Under the pieces are notes generated by a model. It was not told the DNA's origin. It searched no databases and saw only the letters and a list, made by a program, of their open reading frames with translations. From contig JACQQY010000019.1 in NCBI GenBank assembly GCA_016206825.1, forward strand, positions 1-45,820: a stretch of DNA of 45,820 bases, read 5' to 3'. A program made the position numbers and the translations under genes. How positions within the stretch are numbered: the first letter of the stretch is position 1; the number at the start of each line of letters is the position of its first letter. Below, in pieces: positions 16,748 to 31,232 of this stretch. This DNA is from Candidatus Omnitrophota bacterium (GTDB taxonomy: Bacteria; Omnitrophota; Gorgyraeia; 2-02-FULL-51-18).

Positions 16748-19700
16748 ATGGACATGTTAAGAAATAAGAAAAATAAGAAAACCATGAAAGCCGGAAGGGC
16801 TATTTTTTCTCTCACTTCCTCATATCTTTTAAAAATTATCGCTGTTTTTCTTGTTGGTTCCCTCACTTTCGAGCAGTTCGCCTTCGCCTTTCCGGAAAAG
16901 AGGGTGGTGGGTAGTGGGTCGTGGGTGGTGGATGGGAAAAAAGAAGAAAAACTTGCAGGTTTTCGTCTGCCCGAATCGATCGCTTCCGTAGAAGATTCTT
17001 ATTTTCCTTCACCCACCACCCACAACCCACCACCCACGAGCCTGGTTTACCTCCTCCAAGACCCCCATACCAATTTCTCCGGGCAAATAAACTTAGCCAA
17101 AACCATTGATTGGGTTGTGGGTAGTGGGTCGTGGATTGTGGATAAAGAAAAAGCCCCAAAAGGTTTCACCCGCCACCCTTTCTACGTCTTCTTAGAAGCA
17201 GGCCAAGGCAACCACACCCTATCTTTCCTAAAAAAATACGCCTCCAAAGAAAAAACAAAAGAAATCGCTGAAAACTTCTTAAGGCAAGGTAAACTCCATG
17301 GAAGTGAATACCTCAATCTTACCTCAGACTACGACGTCACTCTCTGGGGAGTGGAGAATCTCCCGCTTTATTTTAAAGCTCTGGAAAGCTACAAGAAGAC
17401 AGCCTCCCAGAGAAACAAATTCCAAAGCTACCTAACCCAAATAGAATCCGCAATCAACGCTCTAAAACCAAGAATCTACAACCCTTCCGCCTATACCCTT
17501 GATAAGCAAAAAGACAAGTACGAAAAAGGAGAGTTGTCTCTGGCGGAATACTTTGAAGTTCTTTCCAATAGCTCAGAACACACCAAAACCTTCCCTCACC
17601 TTAAACTTCTAAACAAACTAAAGAAACTGGAAGACTCCATCGATTTCAACAAAGCCCGGGAAGAAGAACAAAAAGCCATCCACTCCCTTTCCATCCAAGA
17701 CCAAAAAGAATTAAAAGACCTCGCCCAATCCACCATGAAGCCTCTACAACGGCTTAACTCCAAAGAAGACCAAGCCTTCTTCTTTCTCGTGGAGGAAAAA
17801 CTAAATTCCAGACTTCCAGCGTACCCCCATCTTTCAAGTTACTTCCATTACCTAAAACTCTCAAAGAAACTCAAAGCCAACAACCTCTTAAAAGAACTAA
17901 AAGCCCTTGAAGCCCAGGCCTTTGATTCCTTGCTCATTAGCCAGGATGAAAAGACCCTCTTTCGTTCTTCCAAGACGCTGTCACTTCTCAAGAAGCTCTT
18001 TAACTTTCAACTGACTCCGGAAGAATGGCAAGAGTACCAGAAGCTTAAAGAAGAATGGATTCAAATCCCCCCCGCCCCCTTTCAAATAAAAAGGGGGTTG
18101 CTCTTTAGCTCTTTTTCTTTAAGTAAAAGAAAGCCCTTACCCCCTTTTCCTTTCAAAGGGGGCAGGGGGGATTTTATCACCGCCCTCACAGGCTTCCTCA
18201 ACAAGAAAATCATGGATTTTAAGGATTATTACAGGGAAACCGTGTTTCTTGAACCCGGCTTCGAAAAAATCGAGAAAGAAGCGGAAGCCTTCTATGACCT
18301 CACCTTCCAAAGAGACCAGGCTTTCATTCAAAACATGCTCCACAAACTCTCTCAAAGCTCTCAAATCCCCCCTGCCCCCTTTGAAGGGAAAAGGGGGTTG
18401 GTCGGGTTGGTTGAACCCCAGCGAACCTCACCCCCTTTTCTTCTTAAAGGGGGCAGGGGGGATTTAAACCCCTCCACCCACCACCCTGTTTTCCTCATGA
18501 CCGGAGGTTTTCATACTCCCAATCTCAAGAAACTCTTAAAAGAAAAAGGAATCTCCTACGTCGTCATCACTCCCCAAGTCTTCCACGAAACCAACCAAAA
18601 GCGCTACGAGAAGCTTCTCTTAAGCCGGGACCTTTCTTCGAAGCCCTTCACCCACGCCATTCCCCTTGGCCTGACACGTCCTTCTTACATCGGCGTTGAT
18701 CTTTTGCTGTACAAAGGAGATCTAGCCCATGGTTTTGCCAATACCGGGGAAGAGCTAAACTCAAAAGAAGAAGAAAGAGCGATCCTCGAAGAAATGAAAC
18801 GCCGCCTTGGAGGAAGAGACCCCCAAGTGGCCGAGCAAGGTTCTGTTCGTCCCACGGGGACGGGAGCGAGGCTGGCTTTGGAAGATCAAAAAATTCAAGT
18901 TTCAAGCTCTGGCCCTAAGGATGCAAGAATTGACCCAAAAGCTGGCAGGTTGACTCTTGCCAAAACTTTTATCAATTTTCTAAAGGCTTACTTTATTGTT
19001 GGGCTGGTTATTTTTTTCTGCTCCTGTAATTTGGGGCATCAAGATAAGAATGTTCAAAAGAACGCCTTGTCTCTCGCCGGAGAAACAAACATTCCCAAAG
19101 ACTTAGAATCTCTAAAACCCTTCTTGGAGCATCAAAATGACGATGTTCGGTCTGACGCCTGGCTTTTCGCCGGAGGAACAAACCTTTTCAAAAACTTGGA
19201 ATCTCTGAAACCATTGTTAGAGCATAAGGATGCGAATATTCGATCAGAAGCCTGGTTTCTTGCCAGAGAAAAAAACTTTTTCAAAGACTTGGAATCTCTA
19301 AAACCCTTCTTGGAGCATCAAAATGTCGGTGTTCAGGTTAGAGCCTGGTCTCTCGCCAAAGAAACAAACCTTTTCAAAGACTTAGAATCTCTAAAACCCT
19401 TGTTGGAGCATCAAGATAGCTATGTTCAGTCCACAGCCTGGTCTCTCGCCCGAGAAACAAACCTTTTCAAAGACTCGGAATCTCTAAAACCCTTCTTGGA
19501 ACATCAAAATGGCTATGTTCAGTTTAGAGCCTGCTCTTTCGCTCGAGAAACAAACCTTTTTAAAGACTTAGAATCTCTAAAACCCTTGTTGGAGTATCAA
19601 AATAGCTATGTTCAGTCCACAGCCTGGTCTCTCGCCAAAGAAACAAACCTTTTTAAAGATTTGGAATCTCTAAAGCCCTTCTTGAAACATCAAAATAACG

Positions 19701-22700
19701 ATGTTCGGTGTAAAGCCTGGTCTCTCGTCCGAGAAACAAACCTTTTCAAAGATTTGGAATCTCTAAAGCCCTTTTTATACGATAAAGGCAGGATAGTTTA
19801 TAAAGATGCGGTTTACTGTTTATCTGAATGTAAACTCTTTGAGAAAGAAAAAGACCTGAGCCCTTATTTAAAAGATACAAACCACCTAGAAATTGCTTGT
19901 GAGGCCTTAAAAGTTCTTATTGAAAGAAAAGAGTTTTCTTTGGACCCTTACGAAAACCTCCTCCGAGCCATTTCTATTGCCGAATACGATGCTGGGCATG
20001 GTTCCTTTGTCAATAAACCTAACAGTGAACTTTTTACGGAATTATACTCCCAATTTATTTCCAGGTTAAACAATCACTATGCTCAAAATAAGCTTACCCC
20101 TCTCCAAGAACTCGAAGATATCGGACTGCCCGTCCTTCACACACTTTCTTACTACAAGGAATACCTTAAAACCCTCCAAGAAGAAGACCGGCTTCTTTTT
20201 ACCAGAAAAGTTGCCGATCTCATCGTGGAGCAAAGAACGGCTCATCAAGATAAAATAATGATTGGAAGCGGTATGAAAGTCATTGTAGCGGCCCATGGAG
20301 AGCTTGGAGAAGGAGACTTGAGATTTGCGGATGCGAAGTTTATGAAGTTTCTTAAACAAATCACCGGTTTGGAAACTATCCCCGTTTTTAGAGGCTCCGA
20401 GGAAGACGTTAAGACCACCCAAGAAAAAAACAAATACCTCAAAGAACTGGAAGAGCTTTCAAGACAAAAAAAAGAATGTGTAATCATTGATCTTGGCCAT
20501 GGAGGCAAAGAGCATTTTTGGTTTTCCGGTGGACAGATAGAGAGTGAAGAGTCGGCCTCTCCTTATCATCCATTGGCCGTGAGTTTTAGGGAATATGCCG
20601 AAGCCTTTGTGAAGGGGCAGTCCCAAGAAAAAGAAATAGATCTTTCACACATCGCTATCATTCAGTCCGCTTGTTATCAGTATGATCTTGTTGAGAGGAT
20701 GTTCCAAGAGATTCTAAAGGTCACCAAGGAAGAGAAAAAATCCGTCAAATCACTTCCATTTGTTATGACACTAGCCAATAAAAACAGATTTGGTTTGTCA
20801 AATAAGCCAGGTACTTATACCTCAGAGCCTATTTTCAATGCCATTTATTCTCTTCGATTAAGGCATGGAATTCCTGTTCGTTTAAAGCACCTCTATCAAA
20901 TAGATCAAATGATTCGAGGAGAGGGTGGGCAAAACCCGGCTATTTTTATACCGATCGACCCACTCAAAGTCCAAGAGAAATTAGGGCTTCCCAAGGAAGT
21001 GGAAATAAAGCCGTTTCTTGAAATCGGCGCAAGATTAGCCCAACCCGGATCCCGCCCCGAGGAACTCACAGAAGTTTCTGCACAAACCCAAACCGGACGG
21101 GGTCCCGAAAAGGCGAAAGGGGACACGTTAGCCAAGGGGTCAAGTCTAGACAATAGACAAAGCGGTGTTAAGGTGCCGGAGTTGGGGGGCATGCGGTCAG
21201 GAGGAGATTTGACCCCTTCCGCAGGGACCGGCCTCTTCTCTAGTGAGAGTGCCGGTGGCGGTAGTATTGCTCTACCTTCATCGCCACGTAAAAGCCGACG
21301 AAGGTTAGAAGAATCACCGCTGAAAAGAATATTAGCGACTTTTCATCCACTTTTCTTTTCCTCCTCTGGTTGGAGTATGAATCCTGATAAAATCAAGCCG
21401 GCAAATATGACACCCAATATTATCACCCATACGGTAACACATCCATTGAGTGAAATCAAACCAAGCATGTGGACTGGCAATAAGGAGAAGGTTTCTACCG
21501 GCGCGAGGCTGGCGGGGCGGGTGCCGGGGTATTTTAAGAATCCGGACTTTCCTGAGTTCCGGGATTGGCTGCTTTCTTCGGATTCGCCGCTGACTGAGAG
21601 AGAGAAGGAGTTTTTGAAGATCCGTTATTGGTGGGGGGACGCCGGGACGGTTCAATCGTTAAAAGAGGTGATCTCAAAAAAAGAAATTCGTTCCAGACTT
21701 GGCTTGGGAAGGTGGGGAATAGCAAGGCTTTCCGCTCATTTGCGGCGGAAGATAAAAGAGCTTTACCGCCTGCGCCATGCACAAAAAGGATTTTATCCTT
21801 CAAACGAAGGGGAAACGGCCGCCGGCGTCAACTTTTTGCAGAGCTCTGGTTCAAGACCGGCAAAGGTGAACCACTCCAAGAATGCCGGGGCGAGGCTGGG
21901 GGAGAAAGAAAGTCAGGTTTCAGGGGCTGACCCCTTGATCGAACCCTCTTTATTAAAAGCGTGGTGGTTTGGGCGGGCTCATCGGTATGCGGCGGCGATG
22001 GGGGTTCCCGAGAAGAAAGCGTGGGAGGTGATCGACCGCGTTTTGGAGAGGTCGTCGTGGTTTGCCTGGAAGCGCGTTTGGCGAAAGGTGTGGATGGAAG
22101 AGGCCCTGAAAGAAAGCGAAGACATTATCTTGAAAGCGAACATGATTTACACCGCAAAAAGCTTTGTTTCAAGAGAAACTTCTTTTACCAATGAGGAAAA
22201 GGAAATATTCAAAGAAGCTCATGAACGGTATTTTCGTCTGAAAAACGGCGGGAAAGCCCGGATAGAACATGACGTCGAAATCCCTTCGAAAAATTTTGAT
22301 TATCCAATCCCGGCGGACTTCCTTCTTCCTCCTAACGCTTCAGGCTCGCATCCGGTTCCGGCGGTCATTCTCGTGCATGGGATGACTCACACGCGGTTTG
22401 AACCGGATCTTAATCCCTTGGTGAGGCGATTGCTGGAGAAAGGGATCGCCGTTTTGCGCGTCGAGCTTCCTTCCCATGGGGACAACCAAAATCGATTCAA
22501 AAAACCAGATGATCTCGATTGGATGGTGAAAGACTCGCTCGATTATCTTAAGAAAGATCCAAGAATCAAATCAGCGGCGATAGGCATCGCGGGTTTTAGT
22601 TTTGGAGCTTACGTGGTATTGAGATCGATTTTGGATGAGAAGATCGCTCCTTATTTGCGCGGTTTTGCGGCCATAGCGCCTCCCGCGATCCGCACGCTTA

Positions 22701-25700
22701 CTTCGTTTGTCCATCTGGTCGTCATTTTGCGCCCGATGAAATCGCAATTGATGAGAGTTTTTGGGGAGCGCTTTTCTTGGCCGCTGCACTCTAAGATTTC
22801 GAAGCTGGCGTTAAATGAAAATAGACTGCTGGAGCTGACCCAGGATACGCCGAGTTTGGAAAAGATCGCCGTGGTGTCGATGGGAAGCGACAGAGTGATT
22901 CACGATGCTGACATTAAAATTCTCTTTGAGGTTTTTGGAAAAGGACCGTCCCAGTATCGATTTTTTAAAAAGGCCTCCCATAACCTTATTGGCCAAGACA
23001 GGCAAGAAGCCGACGCGTTCATTGCCGACCATTTTGAGAAAGCCTTGGGATCAAATGGCGCGAGGTTGGGGGTGAAAGAAAGTGTCAAAAGTCAACGACT
23101 GACCCCAGAACCAAAAGAGGAAAAAAAGAAAGAAGCCGGTGCCCGGCTGGCAATTAATCAGCTTCTTATGTCAGCGGCTAAGGAAGATGTCTATGACAAA
23201 GCGGAAAGAGCGTTTCAGCTTTATCAACAAACGCCCCAGGGCAAACCATCGTTAACATCTGATGACAGAATTAGTTTGGAAACTCTGACCATTCTTCTGC
23301 TTAAAGCTTCACACGCCCAAGCAGGAGAACAGTCTATGTGGGCGCGGTTCTTTTGCCAAATAGATTCTGTTCGAAGAGCATGGCAAGAGCAGCACTTTCC
23401 AGGTGTTATCGAATGGCTGCAAAATTTCTCGGGGGATTCGGTTGTGGCTCAGGCACTCACAAGGTTTGGAACACAGACAAGGCTATCCGATCAGTCTCTT
23501 CCTGCCAAGGTGTCAGAAATTGTATTAGCCGATACATCCGGAGAAGGCAAAGATCTCATCGCCATCCCTACGGTCCAAGACGCATCAAAAACGAAAGAGT
23601 TTATCATGATTTTGAAACCACCTACATCATTTAATCCGGAAACCATTATTGAAATTGTGAAAAGGCTCATTTATTTCGGATACCACGTCGTAGGAATCAG
23701 AGTTTATTCGGGAGAACATTTTGCCGCGCATCCTGAAATCATTGGAAGCCAATACATGGAAGCTTGGGAAGGCTGTCAAAATGGAATTCAAAAAGCGGAA
23801 GAATGGGCCGAGATCAGAAGAATCTACGACACGGATGAGTTTGAAGCGACATTCGGTGAGCGTTACAGTGATCAAATGGTAATTCCAGCCGCTGAATTAG
23901 GAAAACGCTATGGATTTTCCAACGAAGAAATTACGGCTCTATGGGAAAGAGGAAGACGAGAAGCTTTATTTCATAATGGCCGCGCCACAGGCTTAAATAA
24001 GGTAGGCTCAGGGCGAAGCGTTTTTCCGGTCAAAGATCCACGAATCAACAGTGGCAGACCCATCATCATGGTTAATGGCTATGTGCCCAGTTTATTGAAA
24101 CTTTTCCAGGGGCCTGATGCCAGGACAGTGGTTTTTCTGATAAGGAATAGGGAGGATGTTCAGTTCCCTATGTCATGGGAATCTCTTCGCAAACAATTGC
24201 TTGGAAATGAAAATGATCCAAGCGCCAACCCTGCCGGCAGTATACGAAGAGATGCATGGACGGGAAATTTGCCGGTCAGACTTCAAGGCGTCTTGAACGG
24301 ACAAAAAAATGTGGCCCACCTCAGTTCGGGTCCGCTCGAAGGCTTGCGAGAAGCTCACATCATGATGGGGCGTGCCATTCAAGATGCGCCCTTTGGTCAA
24401 CAACTTCTTGCGGCAGGTTATCCAGAATCCCAAATCAAGTATCTCATGGGAAACCCAAAAGTGAGGTATTTGAATAAAGCAACCGGAATGTATGCTGTGG
24501 AATCACTTTTTCGATTGACGGAGTATCGAGAACCCAAAGAAGCTCTAGCAATCATCCTCGAATATTTTCCGCCGTATCGCGAATCAAATCCAGATTTAGC
24601 TTCAAGCGTTCCGTTTGACGAGTTTCTGGAAATACAACAAGCCTACCAGGAAGGAAGTTTGTCCGTGCGAACTAACCGCGTACAGGCGAATGTCGTCCAG
24701 ACATCCAGCGTCGAGCCAATCTACTTTCCTGGAATACCCGAAGATGAGATGAGGCGTCTCAATGAGACAGGCGTTGCCGGATTTCAGGCAGGAGAAGCGG
24801 CGCTTATTGTTCCCGGAGGCGGCACAGGAGGGCGTTATGGTGGTTACCATCTTCCGGAAAGTCATCCTGACCGCCAGAAGGTGTTGGCAAAAGCGCTTGA
24901 GGCAGCAAATGGCCTGCGAAGTCCCTTAGAAGTCAGAGCGGCGCACGTCCTGTGGTGGTCTCGTCATCATCAAGCAAAAATTCCGATTTTAATCATGGGA
25001 AATGAATCGAACCTTCCAGCCATAAATGACGCGCTGGAAGAAAATGACTATTACGGCCTTAATCCGAAACAAGTCGACGCCTATCAGCAAAACGGTATTT
25101 ACAGAATCAATCCTATGGCTAATGATTTATCCGGCCAGTCTGATGCCGCGCTGATTTTAGCCTCAAATGGAGAACCTGGTGGAATCTTTCGGGACGATGA
25201 GGGTCATGTCAGCGCTAAGCCTGCGGGTCACGTAGAAATTATTGCTCAGGCCGTCTTAAACCGCCGTCTCCTGAAACTGGCTCGACAAGGCGTCAAAGTG
25301 CTTGTAACCGCAAATGGGGATGATATGAGATTCCTCTTGGATCCTGCAAAGATTGCCTATTTCATGGAAAGTCCTGAGCAAATGATGGCTGTCCTAGCCT
25401 TAAAAGATGTGACTTATGCCATTCAAGTCTCAGGTCAAAAACATCGTTTGATTGTGCGAGGCCAAAAAGTCGTGCAATCAAGCTTGCCGAAGGAATTTCA
25501 TATCGAGATAGATGGAAACCAAGCACTGAAAATCACTCAAGACGGCAATCTCGTGGATATAGCCATTGAAAGTAAAAAAGTGGAAAAAGGCGGATCCCTG
25601 GTGGACTTGAAAGGTACTGATGAAATCCGGAGGCCTGTGATTCTCGAGGGGCCGGCGTTTCCAGACGAGGCAGACCAAGGTCAATTTCCGTACTTCAACA

Positions 25701-27217
25701 CCAATCAGTTGTATTTCAAAGTTGATGCGCTTCTTCAGTTTTTTGGTATCAGCAATTTAGATGAGTACGAAAGGATGCCACAAAAAGAACTGGCTCATCG
25801 AGTCAGGACGGCTTTATCCCAATTACCTCTTTATGTCGAAATAAAAGATGTCATTACTTCCGGAGAAGATACAAAGGAGCCTCAAACACGCAAAGCAGCC
25901 CAAGTTGTCAGGCTTATAGGAGATTTCAGCCGTGTTTTCAAGACTCGTTACATTACAATTGATCGAGATGGCGAAGAAGGCGTAGGAGGATATGGAGCGC
26001 TCAAAGAAAAACAAGATACCACCGCCGCTTCGCATTGGCTCGAGGAAACCAACAACAAACAGAGAATATTTTTATTCGACCCAACTCCGGGAAAAAGTGA
26101 ATTTAATCCTACGCCGGTTGTTGCTCTTACAATAACTACAACTACAAGCGCTTCCAGTTCGCCTTACCCTCACAAAGATGACGTCAAGGAAGGACTTGAG
26201 CCCTTTGCGAACAATCAATCCAAAAATCCTGTCGTTTTAAACCAAGGCTCCCCCATCGAACAAAAAGACGAGCTCATCTTCGCTTTGAACGTCTACGACA
26301 ATACACGCAAAGAAGGTTACTTCGCGCTTGCCCGAAAACCGGAAGGGACGCCCGATATTCTTGGAATTGAGTTTAATAAAGAAAAGAATACCGTCATCGT
26401 TCATTTTAGCGGCCAAAAGAAAGTCGAAGTTAAAAATTACAGAGCCATTCTTCAGAGAAAAAGGACAGCCCGGCATTATGAGAAGGGAAGTCTTGTTTTA
26501 TCGAGAAAAGAGCTGATTCTCTCGGATATCGCTTTTGAGCTTAAAGAAGAGACGCTCGCCGTCGAAGAAAAGGCCAAGGGTCTCATCACCAACTCCCCTA
26601 AACTCTTGAAACTCAAGCTTCCCGGATTTATGAATGAAAACACCAAGACCACCGATGCCCTCTTTGTCGACTGGCTTATTCACGCCGCCCATAAGGCCAA
26701 GAGAGACAACGCGCTTCTTCTTTTGGAAGAAGGAAGCAGTTTCCGGATGGCGGAGATTCTGAAGAGGGCCTCCAAACTCTATCCGACAGAAAGATTTGTC
26801 TATTCCAGTGAACAAGAATTGCCCGAATCCCACAAAAATGCCAAGAGCGTCACGCTAACAGCCTTCAATCCTGAAGAGGCCCCCCACTTAGAAGAAAACC
26901 AGCTTTACCTCATCTCCCAAACCCTTGAAAAGGGCGCCATGCATAACCTGACGGCTCTTATTCAGACAGCTCTCGTTGAAGCGGAGGTGGGCCTTGAGGG
27001 AATGAGGGCAGACAACCCTCAATTTGACGGATTCAGAAATGTTTATGAAGCCCTGGGCGTGAAGATAGGGGATGACATCAACGGCTTTATCCAATTCACC
27101 AAAGGCATCGGCTTAAACCCACAGAAGATGGAACAGTGGGCCATCCCTTTTCACCGTGTCGATGAAATGCTGAGAGCTTATGCTCTGGGCGCCCGCATGG
27201 CTGAGCAGTCGGCGTAA
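16748..27217 (+). CDS. Giant multidomain protein (3,489 aa), hypothetical; signal-peptide-bearing modular protein, possibly a polyprotein
   Basis: Single stop-free frame of 10,470 nt. N-terminal basic plus hydrophobic segment ending AFA|FP. Recognisable modules are listed as separate 'other' features. Seven G-A-R-[LM]-[AG] junction motifs. No obvious SD; the ATG lies 11 nt after the tyrS stop. Confidence 0.8.
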   Translation: MDMLRNKKNKKTMKAGRAIFSLTSSYLLKIIAVFLVGSLTFEQFAFAFPEKRVVGSGSWVVDGKKEEKLAGFRLPESIASVEDSYFPSPTTHNPPPTSLVYLLQDPHTNFSGQINLAKTIDWVVGSGSWIVDKEKAPKGFTRHPFYVFLEAGQGNHTLSFLKKYASKEKTKEIAENFLRQGKLHGSEYLNLTSDYDVTLWGVENLPLYFKALESYKKTASQRNKFQSYLTQIESAINALKPRIYNPSAYTLDKQKDKYEKGELSLAEYFEVLSNSSEHTKTFPHLKLLNKLKKLEDSIDFNKAREEEQKAIHSLSIQDQKELKDLAQSTMKPLQRLNSKEDQAFFFLVEEKLNSRLPAYPHLSSYFHYLKLSKKLKANNLLKELKALEAQAFDSLLISQDEKTLFRSSKTLSLLKKLFNFQLTPEEWQEYQKLKEEWIQIPPAPFQIKRGLLFSSFSLSKRKPLPPFPFKGGRGDFITALTGFLNKKIMDFKDYYRETVFLEPGFEKIEKEAEAFYDLTFQRDQAFIQNMLHKLSQSSQIPPAPFEGKRGLVGLVEPQRTSPPFLLKGGRGDLNPSTHHPVFLMTGGFHTPNLKKLLKEKGISYVVITPQVFHETNQKRYEKLLLSRDLSSKPFTHAIPLGLTRPSYIGVDLLLYKGDLAHGFANTGEELNSKEEERAILEEMKRRLGGRDPQVAEQGSVRPTGTGARLALEDQKIQVSSSGPKDARIDPKAGRLTLAKTFINFLKAYFIVGLVIFFCSCNLGHQDKNVQKNALSLAGETNIPKDLESLKPFLEHQNDDVRSDAWLFAGGTNLFKNLESLKPLLEHKDANIRSEAWFLAREKNFFKDLESLKPFLEHQNVGVQVRAWSLAKETNLFKDLESLKPLLEHQDSYVQSTAWSLARETNLFKDSESLKPFLEHQNGYVQFRACSFARETNLFKDLESLKPLLEYQNSYVQSTAWSLAKETNLFKDLESLKPFLKHQNNDVRCKAWSLVRETNLFKDLESLKPFLYDKGRIVYKDAVYCLSECKLFEKEKDLSPYLKDTNHLEIACEALKVLIERKEFSLDPYENLLRAISIAEYDAGHGSFVNKPNSELFTELYSQFISRLNNHYAQNKLTPLQELEDIGLPVLHTLSYYKEYLKTLQEEDRLLFTRKVADLIVEQRTAHQDKIMIGSGMKVIVAAHGELGEGDLRFADAKFMKFLKQITGLETIPVFRGSEEDVKTTQEKNKYLKELEELSRQKKECVIIDLGHGGKEHFWFSGGQIESEESASPYHPLAVSFREYAEAFVKGQSQEKEIDLSHIAIIQSACYQYDLVERMFQEILKVTKEEKKSVKSLPFVMTLANKNRFGLSNKPGTYTSEPIFNAIYSLRLRHGIPVRLKHLYQIDQMIRGEGGQNPAIFIPIDPLKVQEKLGLPKEVEIKPFLEIGARLAQPGSRPEELTEVSAQTQTGRGPEKAKGDTLAKGSSLDNRQSGVKVPELGGMRSGGDLTPSAGTGLFSSESAGGGSIALPSSPRKSRRRLEESPLKRILATFHPLFFSSSGWSMNPDKIKPANMTPNIITHTVTHPLSEIKPSMWTGNKEKVSTGARLAGRVPGYFKNPDFPEFRDWLLSSDSPLTEREKEFLKIRYWWGDAGTVQSLKEVISKKEIRSRLGLGRWGIARLSAHLRRKIKELYRLRHAQKGFYPSNEGETAAGVNFLQSSGSRPAKVNHSKNAGARLGEKESQVSGADPLIEPSLLKAWWFGRAHRYAAAMGVPEKKAWEVIDRVLERSSWFAWKRVWRKVWMEEALKESEDIILKANMIYTAKSFVSRETSFTNEEKEIFKEAHERYFRLKNGGKARIEHDVEIPSKNFDYPIPADFLLPPNASGSHPVPAVILVHGMTHTRFEPDLNPLVRRLLEKGIAVLRVELPSHGDNQNRFKKPDDLDWMVKDSLDYLKKDPRIKSAAIGIAGFSFGAYVVLRSILDEKIAPYLRGFAAIAPPAIRTLTSFVHLVVILRPMKSQLMRVFGERFSWPLHSKISKLALNENRLLELTQDTPSLEKIAVVSMGSDRVIHDADIKILFEVFGKGPSQYRFFKKASHNLIGQDRQEADAFIADHFEKALGSNGARLGVKESVKSQRLTPEPKEEKKKEAGARLAINQLLMSAAKEDVYDKAERAFQLYQQTPQGKPSLTSDDRISLETLTILLLKASHAQAGEQSMWARFFCQIDSVRRAWQEQHFPGVIEWLQNFSGDSVVAQALTRFGTQTRLSDQSLPAKVSEIVLADTSGEGKDLIAIPTVQDASKTKEFIMILKPPTSFNPETIIEIVKRLIYFGYHVVGIRVYSGEHFAAHPEIIGSQYMEAWEGCQNGIQKAEEWAEIRRIYDTDEFEATFGERYSDQMVIPAAELGKRYGFSNEEITALWERGRREALFHNGRATGLNKVGSGRSVFPVKDPRINSGRPIIMVNGYVPSLLKLFQGPDARTVVFLIRNREDVQFPMSWESLRKQLLGNENDPSANPAGSIRRDAWTGNLPVRLQGVLNGQKNVAHLSSGPLEGLREAHIMMGRAIQDAPFGQQLLAAGYPESQIKYLMGNPKVRYLNKATGMYAVESLFRLTEYREPKEALAIILEYFPPYRESNPDLASSVPFDEFLEIQQAYQEGSLSVRTNRVQANVVQTSSVEPIYFPGIPEDEMRRLNETGVAGFQAGEAALIVPGGGTGGRYGGYHLPESHPDRQKVLAKALEAANGLRSPLEVRAAHVLWWSRHHQAKIPILIMGNESNLPAINDALEENDYYGLNPKQVDAYQQNGIYRINPMANDLSGQSDAALILASNGEPGGIFRDDEGHVSAKPAGHVEIIAQAVLNRRLLKLARQGVKVLVTANGDDMRFLLDPAKIAYFMESPEQMMAVLALKDVTYAIQVSGQKHRLIVRGQKVVQSSLPKEFHIEIDGNQALKITQDGNLVDIAIESKKVEKGGSLVDLKGTDEIRRPVILEGPAFPDEADQGQFPYFNTNQLYFKVDALLQFFGISNLDEYERMPQKELAHRVRTALSQLPLYVEIKDVITSGEDTKEPQTRKAAQVVRLIGDFSRVFKTRYITIDRDGEEGVGGYGALKEKQDTTAASHWLEETNNKQRIFLFDPTPGKSEFNPTPVVALTITTTTSASSSPYPHKDDVKEGLEPFANNQSKNPVVLNQGSPIEQKDELIFALNVYDNTRKEGYFALARKPEGTPDILGIEFNKEKNTVIVHFSGQKKVEVKNYRAILQRKRTARHYEKGSLVLSRKELILSDIAFELKEETLAVEEKAKGLITNSPKLLKLKLPGFMNENTKTTDALFVDWLIHAAHKAKRDNALLLLEEGSSFRMAEILKRASKLYPTERFVYSSEQELPESHKNAKSVTLTAFNPEEAPHLEENQLYLISQTLEKGAMHNLTALIQTALVEAEVGLEGMRADNPQFDGFRNVYEALGVKIGDDINGFIQFTKGIGLNPQKMEQWAIPFHRVDEMLRAYALGARMAEQSA
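16902..17143. repeat. G-tract / C-tract inverted repeat set inside the 5' end of the giant ORF
   Basis: GGGTGGTGGGTAGTGGGTCGTGGGTGGTGGATGGG (16902-16935). Its approximate reverse complement is CACCCACCACCCACAACCCACCACCCACGA (about 17010-17039). A second G-rich copy lies at 17112-17143. They are translated as VVGSGSWVVD / PTTHNPPPT / VVGSGSWIVD. Confidence 0.75.
18063..18174. repeat. Family-A palindromic element inserted in-frame in the giant ORF (copy 1)
   Basis: AAATCCCCCCCGCCCCCTTT ... AAAGGGGGCAGGGGGGATTT. Read through as IPPAPFQIKRGLLFSSFSLSKRKPLPPFPFKGGRGDF. Confidence 0.85.
18363..18465. repeat. Family-A palindromic element inserted in-frame in the giant ORF (copy 2)
   Basis: AAATCCCCCCTGCCCCCTTT ... 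AAAGGGGGCAGGGGGGATTT. Read through in the same frame as IPPAPFEGKRGLVGLVEPQRTSPPFLLKGGRGDL. Confidence 0.85.
19088..19831 (+). repeat. Eight tandem 93-nt (31-aa) HEAT-like coding repeats
   Basis: Units start at 19088, 19181, 19274, 19367, 19460, 19553, 19646 and 19739. Consensus NLFKDLESLKPFLEHQNxxVxxxAWSLAxET. A partial unit lies before 19088 and degenerate units after 19831. Confidence 0.85.
20260..20720 (+). other. Caspase-fold (clan CD)-like cysteine peptidase module of the giant protein
   Basis: Hydrophobic strand plus His-Gly (CVIIDLGHGG, His1251 at 20498-20500), and hydrophobic strand plus Cys (IAIIQSACYQ, Cys1309 at 20672-20674), 58 aa apart. An earlier strand reads KVIVAAHGE. Motif-level evidence only. 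Confidence 0.45.
21515..21886 (+). other. Sigma-70 region-4/LuxR-like helix-turn-helix module of the giant protein
   Basis: LTEREKEFLKIRYWWG...SLKEV...LGLGRWGIARLSAHLRRKIKELY resembles the L.eRer.vl.lry...s..eIa..lg.s...v......a..kLr pattern. Bounded by GARLA (21500) and GARLG (21887). Confidence 0.35.
22260..23056 (+). other. Alpha/beta-hydrolase module of the giant protein
   Basis: VILVHG strand; nucleophile elbow G-F-S-F-G (Ser1951, 22598-22600); GSDRVI (Asp2048, 22889-22891); ASHNL (His2078, 22979-22981). The order is the canonical Ser-Asp-His. Confidence 0.6.
23594..24400 (+). other. Nucleoside-diphosphate-kinase-like module with a large insertion
   Basis: KEFIMILKP (compare ERTFIMIKPD), LLGNENDPSANPAGSIRRDAW (compare GaTnP..A.pGTIRgDf) and KNVAHLSSGPLEGLREAHIM (compare N.iHGSDS.e.A.rEi; His2524 at 24317-24319). 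The first and last blocks are about 240 aa apart, versus about 105 in canonical NDK. Confidence 0.5.
24690..26050 (+). other. UDP-sugar pyrophosphorylase (UDPGP family)-like nucleotidyltransferase module
   Basis: LIVPGGGTGGRYGG (compare LNGGLGTsMG), AKPAGHVEI, VTANGDD and PYFNTNQLYF (compare FNTNN). Confidence 0.55.
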
Positions 27218-27644: not shown

Positions 27645-27730
27645 AAATCCCCCCTGCCCCCTTTTAAATAAAAAGGGGGTTGGTCAAACCCCGCTTCCTT
27701 CAGTAGTAGTTGCTCTTTAGTTCTTTCTCT
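27645..27730. repeat. Family-A palindromic element, truncated (left-half) copy
   Basis: AAATCCCCCCTGCCCCCTTTTAAATAAAAAGGGGGTTGG... plus the internal GTTGCTCTTTAG block. The right terminal repeat is absent. Confidence 0.7.
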
Positions 27731-27772
27731 ATAATGACAAATTGTAAAAATTGTAAAAAGTCGTAAAATATA

Positions 27773-28715: not shown

Positions 28716-28748
28716 GAAGGTGTGAAAAAATTCCTTCGGCCCTTTGTC

Positions 28749-28826
28749 ACCCCCGCAATGTTTAAGCGGGGGTCTTTCACTGAGGGGCCCCTCCACGAGA
28801 GATTCCCGCTAAAACATTGCGGGAAT
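28749..28826. repeat. Composite imperfect palindrome (two inverted hairpins flanking GAGGGGCCCCTC); hairpin 1 is a possible rpsI terminator
   Basis: ACCCCCGC-aatgtttaa-GCGGGGGT (28749-28773). 12-nt palindrome GAGGGGCCCCTC (28782-28793). ATTCCCGC-taaaacatt-GCGGGAAT (28802-28826), which approximates the reverse complement of hairpin 1. Confidence 0.65.
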
Positions 28827-28853
28827 GACAGGAGGCGATTTTTACGCGAGTCG

Positions 28854-31130: not shown

Positions 31131-31232
31131 AGACCCTCCCCCTGATAAGGGGGAGCCGGAGGGGGTTTGGAGCAGGCTTTGTAGACAAACCCAAACCCCC
31201 TCTAACTCCCCCTTGACAGGGGGAGGAAGGTC
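31131..31232. repeat. Palindromic MITE-like element, family B, between argJ and argB
   Basis: Left arm CCCTCCCCCTGATAAGGGGGAGCCGGAGGGGGTTTGG (31134-31170). Right arm CCAAACCCCCTCTAACTCCCCCTTGACAGGGGGAGG (31191-31226). The arms are near-perfect reverse complements, and each also self-pairs. Confidence 0.8.

Follow-up and report, generated by a model that had tools for sequence, protein, structure and literature searches.

The DNA analysed here (the window) is a stretch of 45,820 nucleotides from a Candidatus Omnitrophota bacterium (contig JACQQY010000019.1, assembly GCA_016206825.1), in which two palindromic repeats lie in frame within a giant open reading frame (ORF). The explanation that we hold with good confidence is that they are copies of a non-autonomous dispersed palindromic repeat, and that two separate insertion events placed them in variable loops of the giant protein's conserved N-terminal domain.

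The 20-mer AAATCCCCCCTGCCCCCTTT matched the window seven times with at most one mismatch, compared with 0.02 matches expected, and none of 100 shuffled sequences reached seven. The matches (positions 17, 103 on the minus strand, 18063, 18155 on the minus strand, 18363, 18446 on the minus strand, and 27645) paired into three full palindromes and one lone arm. The host ORF and the copies are as follows:

16748–27217, plus strand: giant ORF of 3489 aa, whose N-terminal ~640 aa are a domain common to nine homologues
18063–18174 (112 nt): palindrome copy 1, arms 18063–18098 and 18139–18174, in frame at codons 439–476, QIPPAPFQIKRGLLFSSFSLSKRKPLPPFPFKGGRGDF
18363–18465 (103 nt): palindrome copy 2, arms 18363–18398 and 18430–18465, in frame at codons 539–573, QIPPAPFEGKRGLVGLVEPQRTSPPFLLKGGRGDL
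17–122 (106 nt): intergenic full copy upstream of proS (201–1958), the closest relative of copy 1
27645–27734, plus strand: half copy with an intact left arm (27645–27680), then a degraded centre and no right arm

The half copy is also intergenic, lying between the stop of the giant ORF (27217) and rplM (27792). The coordinates given for the two intragenic elements in the initial annotation proved exact. Its 20-nt terminal inverted repeats recur seven times as termini, but the true inverted arms are longer: they span 36 nt (AAATCCCCCCTGCCCCCTTT-caaat-AAAAAGGGGGT), arms of the same copy being 86–89% complementary and arms of different copies up to 97%. Each arm contains a small hairpin of its own (CCCCCTTT...AAAGGGGG), and in each full copy two such 36-nt modules face each other as an inverted doublet across a spacer of 31–40 nt. 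The single-strand DNA folds of the palindromes were more stable than those of shuffled sequences (z of −5.0 to −7.6), and the RNA folds of the intragenic copies reached −58 and −78 kcal/mol (z of −6.3 and −8.7, respectively) with stems of 36–40 bp. An Rfam search of the window at the gathering threshold recovered only a tRNA, a permissive Rfam search of 17900–18600 yielded only sub-threshold miRNA-hairpin noise, and a literature search with the peptide strings returned only papers on RGD biomaterials.

The centre of copy 2 is unlike that of copy 1 and resembles that of the half copy, while the centre of copy 1 resembles that of the intergenic copy. Because the centres differ and the flanks are unrelated, the two intragenic copies are, as judged from their sequences, independent insertions; segmental duplication as their source was ruled out on the same grounds. 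No direct repeat of 2–10 bp was found beside any of the three full copies, whose flanks read ATCTC before and AAACCG after, GATTC before and TATCAC after, and CTCTC before and AAACCC after, respectively.

Both intragenic copies are read in the same codon phase, encoding the peptides QIPPAPF...KGGRGDF (38 aa) and QIPPAPF...KGGRGDL (35 aa), and all five other frames of each copy contain stops, leaving open only the one in use. The earlier description of two palindromes in one shared frame, with stop-free predicted peptides of about 35–38 aa, was thus borne out, as were its two accompanying statements: the equivalent frame of the intergenic copy has no stop (QIPPTPF...KGGRGDL; two of the copy's six frames are open), and the half copy meets a TAA straight after ...CCCTTT. 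Both palindromes are probably translated, in which case peptides reading ...EEWIQIPPAPF... and ...KGGRGDFITALTG... would be expected across the insertion junctions. The in-frame state is best read as survivorship, given that with an intact ORF only open-frame insertions are visible. Selection on the host gene would have removed insertions that shifted the frame or brought a stop, and the survivors would have added 38 and 35 residues of translated, probably disordered loop rich in proline and glycine. The arms would be easily tolerated because their C-runs and G-runs contain no stop codons.

The first 700 residues of the giant ORF retrieved nine homologues (E-values from 6e-114 to 7e-65, 34–42% identity), two of which had a source name, both being Ca. 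Omnitrophica metagenome-assembled genomes (MAGs). The first peptide was found in none of the homologues covering site 1, and the second in none of the five covering site 2 (P0001–P0005); the same residues at both sites, which the initial annotation had named as evidence against insertion, were therefore encountered in no homologue covering them. The sequence before, between, and after the two copies aligned with the homologues in frame, including conserved blocks on either side (TPEEYxEY and LTGFLNKKIMD, RDxAFxxNxLxK and LITGGxHTPNLK). Both sites are variable, with unrelated short inserts in other homologues. In an AlphaFold2 model, both peptides (model residues 375–404 and 471–508) were coil with a predicted local distance difference test score (pLDDT) below 50, located between confident helices and strands. 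Since the homologues lack the peptides, the flanks align in frame, and the model places low-confidence coil at both sites, the peptides are insertions into variable loops, and the annotated insertion of palindromes into coding sequence agrees with this alignment. Both loops would be surface-exposed under our proposal. The genomic context of homologue P0001 was not syntenic and contained no module.

The layout of the 36-nt module can be described from one arm:

18139–18174, plus strand: module example, comprising the C stem CCCCCTTT, a TCCTTTC loop, the purine stem AAAGGGGG, CA(G), and the mirrored third run GGGGGATT(T)

The same layout was repeated at 87–122 and 18430–18465, and as the complement at 17–52, 18063–18098, 18363–18398, and 27645–27680. 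The third run mirrors the purine stem with allowed triplets (five G.G-C, one A.A-T, and two T.A-T). A C-rich stem, a loop, a purine stem, a short loop, and a mirrored G-rich run also make up the BoxC, PIT, and TMECO intrastrand triplex motifs (Hoyne et al. 2000; architecture described by Holder et al. 2015, PMC4666352). The arms accordingly share the architecture of these motifs at the sequence level, apart from a first loop of 7 nt compared with the limit of 6 in the ITxF search; the triplex itself is predicted, and even TMECO showed no stable triplex in vivo (PMC4666352). Intrastrand triplex motifs are strongly conserved and widespread in bacteria, with very many G/C-rich examples in some Enterobacteria and Cyanobacteria, occur singly or as inverted doublets, and have been tied to local genome instability; neither a transposase nor an integrase was found in the neighbourhood of TMECO motifs (PMC4666352). 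Our module likewise occurs as singles and inverted doublets, is widespread and highly conserved, and has no known mobility gene. It differs in belonging to another sequence family: its runs are CCCCCTTT, AAAGGGGG, and GGGGGATT, which do not match the TMECO consensus CCCTCNCCC N3-6 GGGNGAGGG N3 GGGNGAGGG. It also differs in placement, since TMECO in Escherichia coli K-12 is 'always intergenic' (PMC4666352), whereas two copies here are intragenic and in frame.

Further intergenic palindromes occur in the window at 31135–31226 (just after argJ) and at 28745–28830 (between rpsI and argC). The arms of the former (CTCCCCCT-gata-AGGGGGAG-cc-GGAGGGGG) again comprise a C stem, a purine stem, and a mirrored G-run, making it a second paired triplex-like repeat family of the contig.

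To survey the module elsewhere, one genome per species was scanned for ATCCCCCCYRCCCCCTTT, which yielded at least 111 loci. These were distributed among Patescibacteria, Omnitrophota, Chloroflexota, Cyanobacteria, Nitrospinota, Thiotrichaceae, Myxococcota, Desulfobacterota, Bacteroidota, Planctomycetota, Leptospiraceae, Armatimonadota, and others. Among the matches listed, a strict pattern recognised the CCCCCTTT-loop-AAAGGGGG hairpin in 93 of 115, the remainder mostly having longer loops; the two bases upstream of the module were mostly AA, and solo modules were common. Beyond the ~35-nt module the sequence was genome-specific, and in Thiomargarita and one MAG (CBDUZI01) the module lay within longer repeats with other ends. 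Because of these two features, the conserved unit is the module and not the whole palindrome. Mimicry of a tRNA T-arm by TCAAATCCCCC was considered and ruled out, as the upstream bases were not conserved across genomes.

The module family was also found in frame within other genes:

L098: HypF with three in-frame palindromes, its Pfam domains split into two stretches each
L064 (Moraniibacteriota): Mur ligase with the module family in frame
L013 (Moraniibacteriota): radical-SAM protein with the module family in frame
L002 (Omnitrophota): giant ORF of more than 1590 codons, containing ...PFEKGGRGDL...
L025 (Armatimonadota): giant ORF with the module family in frame

The HypF case comes from the MAG 'bacterium bins.121' (JANRKU010000039.1), where a related palindrome (..YPHPLTPSPQGGEGE..FSPPFSMQWGKGAGGIGD) splits the Sua5/YrdC and Kae1-like domains. 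Matches within the ORFs of MiaB (L011) and ProB (L068) had no hairpin and were rejected as chance matches to native motifs. The initial annotation had regarded in-frame survival of such elements as rare outside Rickettsia, which was overstated: besides these five genes, a 2024 review calls in-frame MITE (miniature inverted-repeat transposable element) fusions 'not unusual', citing Rickettsia palindromic elements (RPEs), ERIC, QMITE1, and Anabaena MITEs (PMC10969869).

One further contig (L055) had modules at both of its ends; it contained a helix-turn-helix/AbiEii-like island and no transposase. Viral contigs provided no evidence of phage carriage: among 22 viral loci, at least 20 carried a different motif, ATCCCCCCTACCCCCTTTTTTG, without the hairpin, the module was present only in L200, and DUF559 was present in none. 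These loci (L194–L215, IMG/VR) are large phage contigs. Their different conserved motif includes the same 18-mer (tccgttgttccaATCCCCCCTACCCCCTTTTTTG), with an AT-rich stretch and then a start codon behind it, and each contig has several copies. The motif has no relation to the hairpin module and may be a regulatory or terminator element of phages.

When all ORFs of the at least 111 module loci were clustered to seek common families, the sole common family among the matches listed, two-component proteins aside, was DUF559 (PF04480; 100–140 aa, E-values of 1e-29 to 1e-32). It was present in eight of the 111 module loci listed, in different phyla, and in each case the module lay no more than about 110 nt from the start or stop of the gene. 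The response-regulator/histidine-kinase cluster was set aside, because this family is ubiquitous and its position bore no relation to that of the module, and no recurrent transposase family was found among the ORFs of the module loci listed. Within the PD-(D/E)XK superfamily, DUF559 has been placed alongside Vsr and a homing endonuclease that resembles Vsr (PMC3424549).

The association was also examined in reverse, using 80 DUF559 loci fetched from metagenomes by protein pattern. C/G-run modules were approximately 10 times denser within 160 nt of the DUF559 gene (29 in 27.6 kb) than in the outer flanks (17 in 160 kb), and a gut-type analogue hairpin (CCTCCCTC...GAGGGAGG) was approximately 34 times denser near DUF559 genes (29 vs 5). 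The common layout was doublet-gene-doublet (F..R-gene-F..R). In 21 of 34 gut-type hairpins the mirror GGAGGGAG came next, and in none of the 34 a direct repeat, which is what the triplex design predicts. A tblastn search with E. coli RayT, a single query of limited sensitivity, gave a single weak hit across 193 loci (992 kb), with the window yielding none; this only RAYT-like (Y1 transposase) match (L124, 108–419) lies ~1.1 kb upstream of a DUF559 gene.

In E. coli K-12 (locus examined, 1351100–1351760), the DUF559 gene ycjD has a canonical BoxC/TMECO ~190 nt downstream and a partial TMECO across its stop codon. Of 5426 complete E. coli genomes, 3378 contain the gene and 38% lack it. In a spread sample, 37 ycjD-positive chromosomes contained 8–26 further TMECO places (median 16), compared with 1–14 (median 3.5) in 22 ycjD-negative chromosomes; all sampled chromosomes with four or fewer TMECOs lacked ycjD, and all ycjD-positive ones had at least eight. 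No literature linking DUF559 to repeats was found in the library searched, and Holder et al. 2015 do not mention ycjD.

It is conceivable, though we consider it doubtful, that DUF559 nucleases are the missing partner of BoxC/PIT/TM-type repeats, in a cross-phylum system similar to REPIN-RAYT in which the nuclease would bind the module in its folded state and have it copied by nick and repair. If this were true, a small, usually low-copy DUF559 nuclease gene flanked by paired modules would seed them into intergenic DNA and, where the frame allows, into protein loops such as those of the giant gene, HypF, the Mur ligase, and others. For the repeats of the window, we would speculate that copying occurred in trans by a structure-specific nuclease together with repair or recombination, in a REPIN-RAYT-like manner, and not by a DDE transposase; this is suggested by the lack of a target-site duplication and by the concentration of the module family at both ends of DUF559 genes.

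The elements might instead be classical MITEs, that is, internally deleted insertion sequences with terminal inverted repeats of 20–36 nt, which a DDE transposase encoded elsewhere in the genome would bind and move by cut and paste. The label 'MITE-like' in the initial annotation was apt as far as the terminal inverted repeats, the size below 300 bp, and the lack of an internal transposase gene are concerned, and the several copies without coding capacity of their own also fit. However, the ends are not simple inverted repeats: each is a module of 36 nt that forms a hairpin by itself and includes a mirrored G/C run. The lack of direct repeats beside the three full copies argues against DDE-type transposition. 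Furthermore, the module occurs in repeats with other ends (Thiomargarita and CBDUZI01) and commonly alone, a parent insertion sequence with the same ends is absent from the window, no transposase family recurred among the module loci listed, and Holder et al. (PMC4666352) saw no transposase near TMECO motifs. We therefore consider a classical MITE unlikely.

A dying or unexpressed giant ORF, in which the insertions would be neutral and the open frame a leftover rather than a result of selection, is less likely still. It would fit the atypical GC content, the lack of a close orthologue, and the presence of at least five foreign in-frame blocks in the first 600 codons, but 3489 codons are free of stops, the reading frame survives two elements that contain stops in all five other frames, and the conserved blocks on both sides still align with homologues. 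Removal of the elements from the transcript, in an intron-like manner or by cutting and re-ligation at the hairpin, would leave a protein without the peptides. The very stable hairpins would bring the element ends together; however, no Rfam family and nothing resembling a ribozyme or a group I or II intron was recognised, a spliced element need not be stop-free whereas both copies lie in the single open frame, and exact excision of cores whose lengths are not multiples of three would shift the frame, making this reading very improbable. Native protein repeats (e.g., RGD-containing motifs) of which the intergenic copies would be gene fragments are hardly credible, since the two peptides do share PPxPF and KGGRGD ends within one protein but are absent from homologues, resemble each other at the DNA level as palindromes, and have intergenic copies, and the module recurs in unrelated genes and intergenic DNA of many phyla.

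Several points weigh against the preferred reading of dispersed repeats inserted in frame and against the proposed role of DUF559. With folds of −58 and −78 kcal/mol, the RNA stems could attract RNase III or block ribosomes, and full-length protein may therefore be rare or absent. Dividing the core lengths of 103, 106, and 112 nt by three leaves a remainder of 1 in every case, which means that the unit actually inserted has to deviate by 2 nt from the core seen between the terminal inverted repeats. The homologues, only 34–42% identical, include no near-identical empty site to define the exact ends, and the AlphaFold2 model was built on 10 sequences, with a pLDDT of 71. Regarding DUF559, the link is correlative, and the 45.8-kb window contains no DUF559 gene; the repeats might simply build up around such genes, or the genes might home into the repeats. 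O157:H7-type E. coli keep 12 TMECOs without ycjD, and the contrast between ycjD-positive and ycjD-negative E. coli is suggestive but confounded by phylogeny and sample choice.

Among known systems, the comparison with RPEs made in the initial annotation is apt for the phenomenon. According to the 2024 review (PMC10969869), RPEs are palindromes of ~100–150 bp that occur both between and within genes, where they are in frame and add a peptide while the ORF is kept; the review, citing Ogata et al. 2000 and 2002, suggests that the inserts occupy places where the protein fold can accommodate them. The elements of the window are 103–112 nt long, are present as three full copies and one half copy in 45.8 kb, and include in-frame copies within a gene whose ORF continues. 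Unlike RPEs, however, they reside in Omnitrophota, almost certainly not Rickettsia, and the likeness is one of size, palindromy, and placement. Their arms are C-run/G-run arms of a cross-phylum triplex type, whereas RPEs are a feature of the Rickettsia lineage, and the coding copies number two here compared with dozens in Rickettsia.

The REPIN-RAYT system (Bertels and Rainey 2011, PMC3116915) is similar in that two inverted hairpin units around a spacer form a long hairpin, decayed singlets occur, no target-site duplication is made, and a usually single-copy, repeat-flanked gene is the presumed mobiliser. Doublets and a singlet were likewise found here, but the ends are (C)AAATCCCCCC and not the GTAG/CGTC tag, the flanked gene encodes a DUF559 PD-(D/E)XK nuclease and not a Y1 (HUH) transposase, and REPINs are essentially extragenic and lineage-specific whereas the module crosses phyla. 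ERIC, Coxiella QMITE1, and Anabaena MITEb/e (PMC10969869, PMC5896051) are also small palindromes with occasional in-frame fusions to host ORFs, but they have recognisable terminal inverted repeats and target-site duplications or insertion-sequence relatives, whereas neither a target-site duplication nor an insertion-sequence partner was seen here.

Palindromes tolerated in frame were thus already known from Rickettsia and Coxiella, and what is new is the Omnitrophota host and the cross-phylum module of triplex type. Selfish palindromes that survive in frame are a documented route to new protein loops, and the present case adds an uncultivated phylum to it; alongside the examples in HypF, the Mur ligase, and the radical-SAM protein, it shows that one cross-phylum repeat family takes this route repeatedly. 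The strong two-way association with DUF559, including E. coli ycjD, offers a hypothesis for the spread of triplex motifs that is genetically testable in E. coli. Annotators who meet peptides such as IPPAPF...KGGRGD or GKGAGGIG in proteins from metagenomes should treat them as inserts derived from repeats and not as motifs.

The giant ORF lies between tyrS and rplM in the gene order proS, nusA, infB, cmk, rpsA, tyrS, giant ORF, rplM, rpsI, argC, and argJ. Its GC content is 44–47%, compared with 53–57% in the surrounding housekeeping genes, and this lower value, with the position between tyrS and rplM, suggests that it was acquired horizontally. The repeat remnant at 27645 is located near its 3' border. 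Pfam assigned only Abhydrolase_6 (aa 1873–1992) and HEAT_2. The module hosting the insertions had been annotated as ChaN/TraB-like; the copies do lie between conserved blocks of the nine-homologue domain, but the label was not confirmed, as no ChaN, TraB, or erythromycin-esterase-like identity was obtained from Pfam or PDB profile hits, and the best related Foldseek match, erythromycin esterase EreC (6xcq), was non-significant (E-value of 0.5, TM-score of 0.12–0.16).

The same N-terminal domain contains a second in-frame repeat family, consisting of three ~33-nt blocks of a G-rich heptamer repeat, (GGGTNGT)n, at 16902–16937 (plus strand), 17005–17040 (minus strand), and 17112–17142 (plus strand). 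They encode VVGSGSWVVD twice and, in the reverse orientation, HNPPPTS, and from their composition could form G-quadruplexes. The heptamer peptides do not occur at those positions in the homologues, and similar ones are found elsewhere in P0005 (SRGSWVVSKPEGSPTTDDS) and P0006 (ESGEWRVESG). A motif G-A-R-L-(A/G) occurs six times at apparent domain borders (18863, 21026, 21500, 21887, 23057, and 23138, corresponding to aa 706, 1427, 1585, 1714, 2104, and 2131, respectively), with similar (G/A)(A/S)RLA motifs in homologues P0001–P0003; it could serve as a linker or mark where a polyprotein-like giant protein is processed. At 19031–19888, the ORF also contains at least seven tandem repeats of 93 nt (31 aa), which are HEAT-like units reading LESLKP(F/L)LEHQ...

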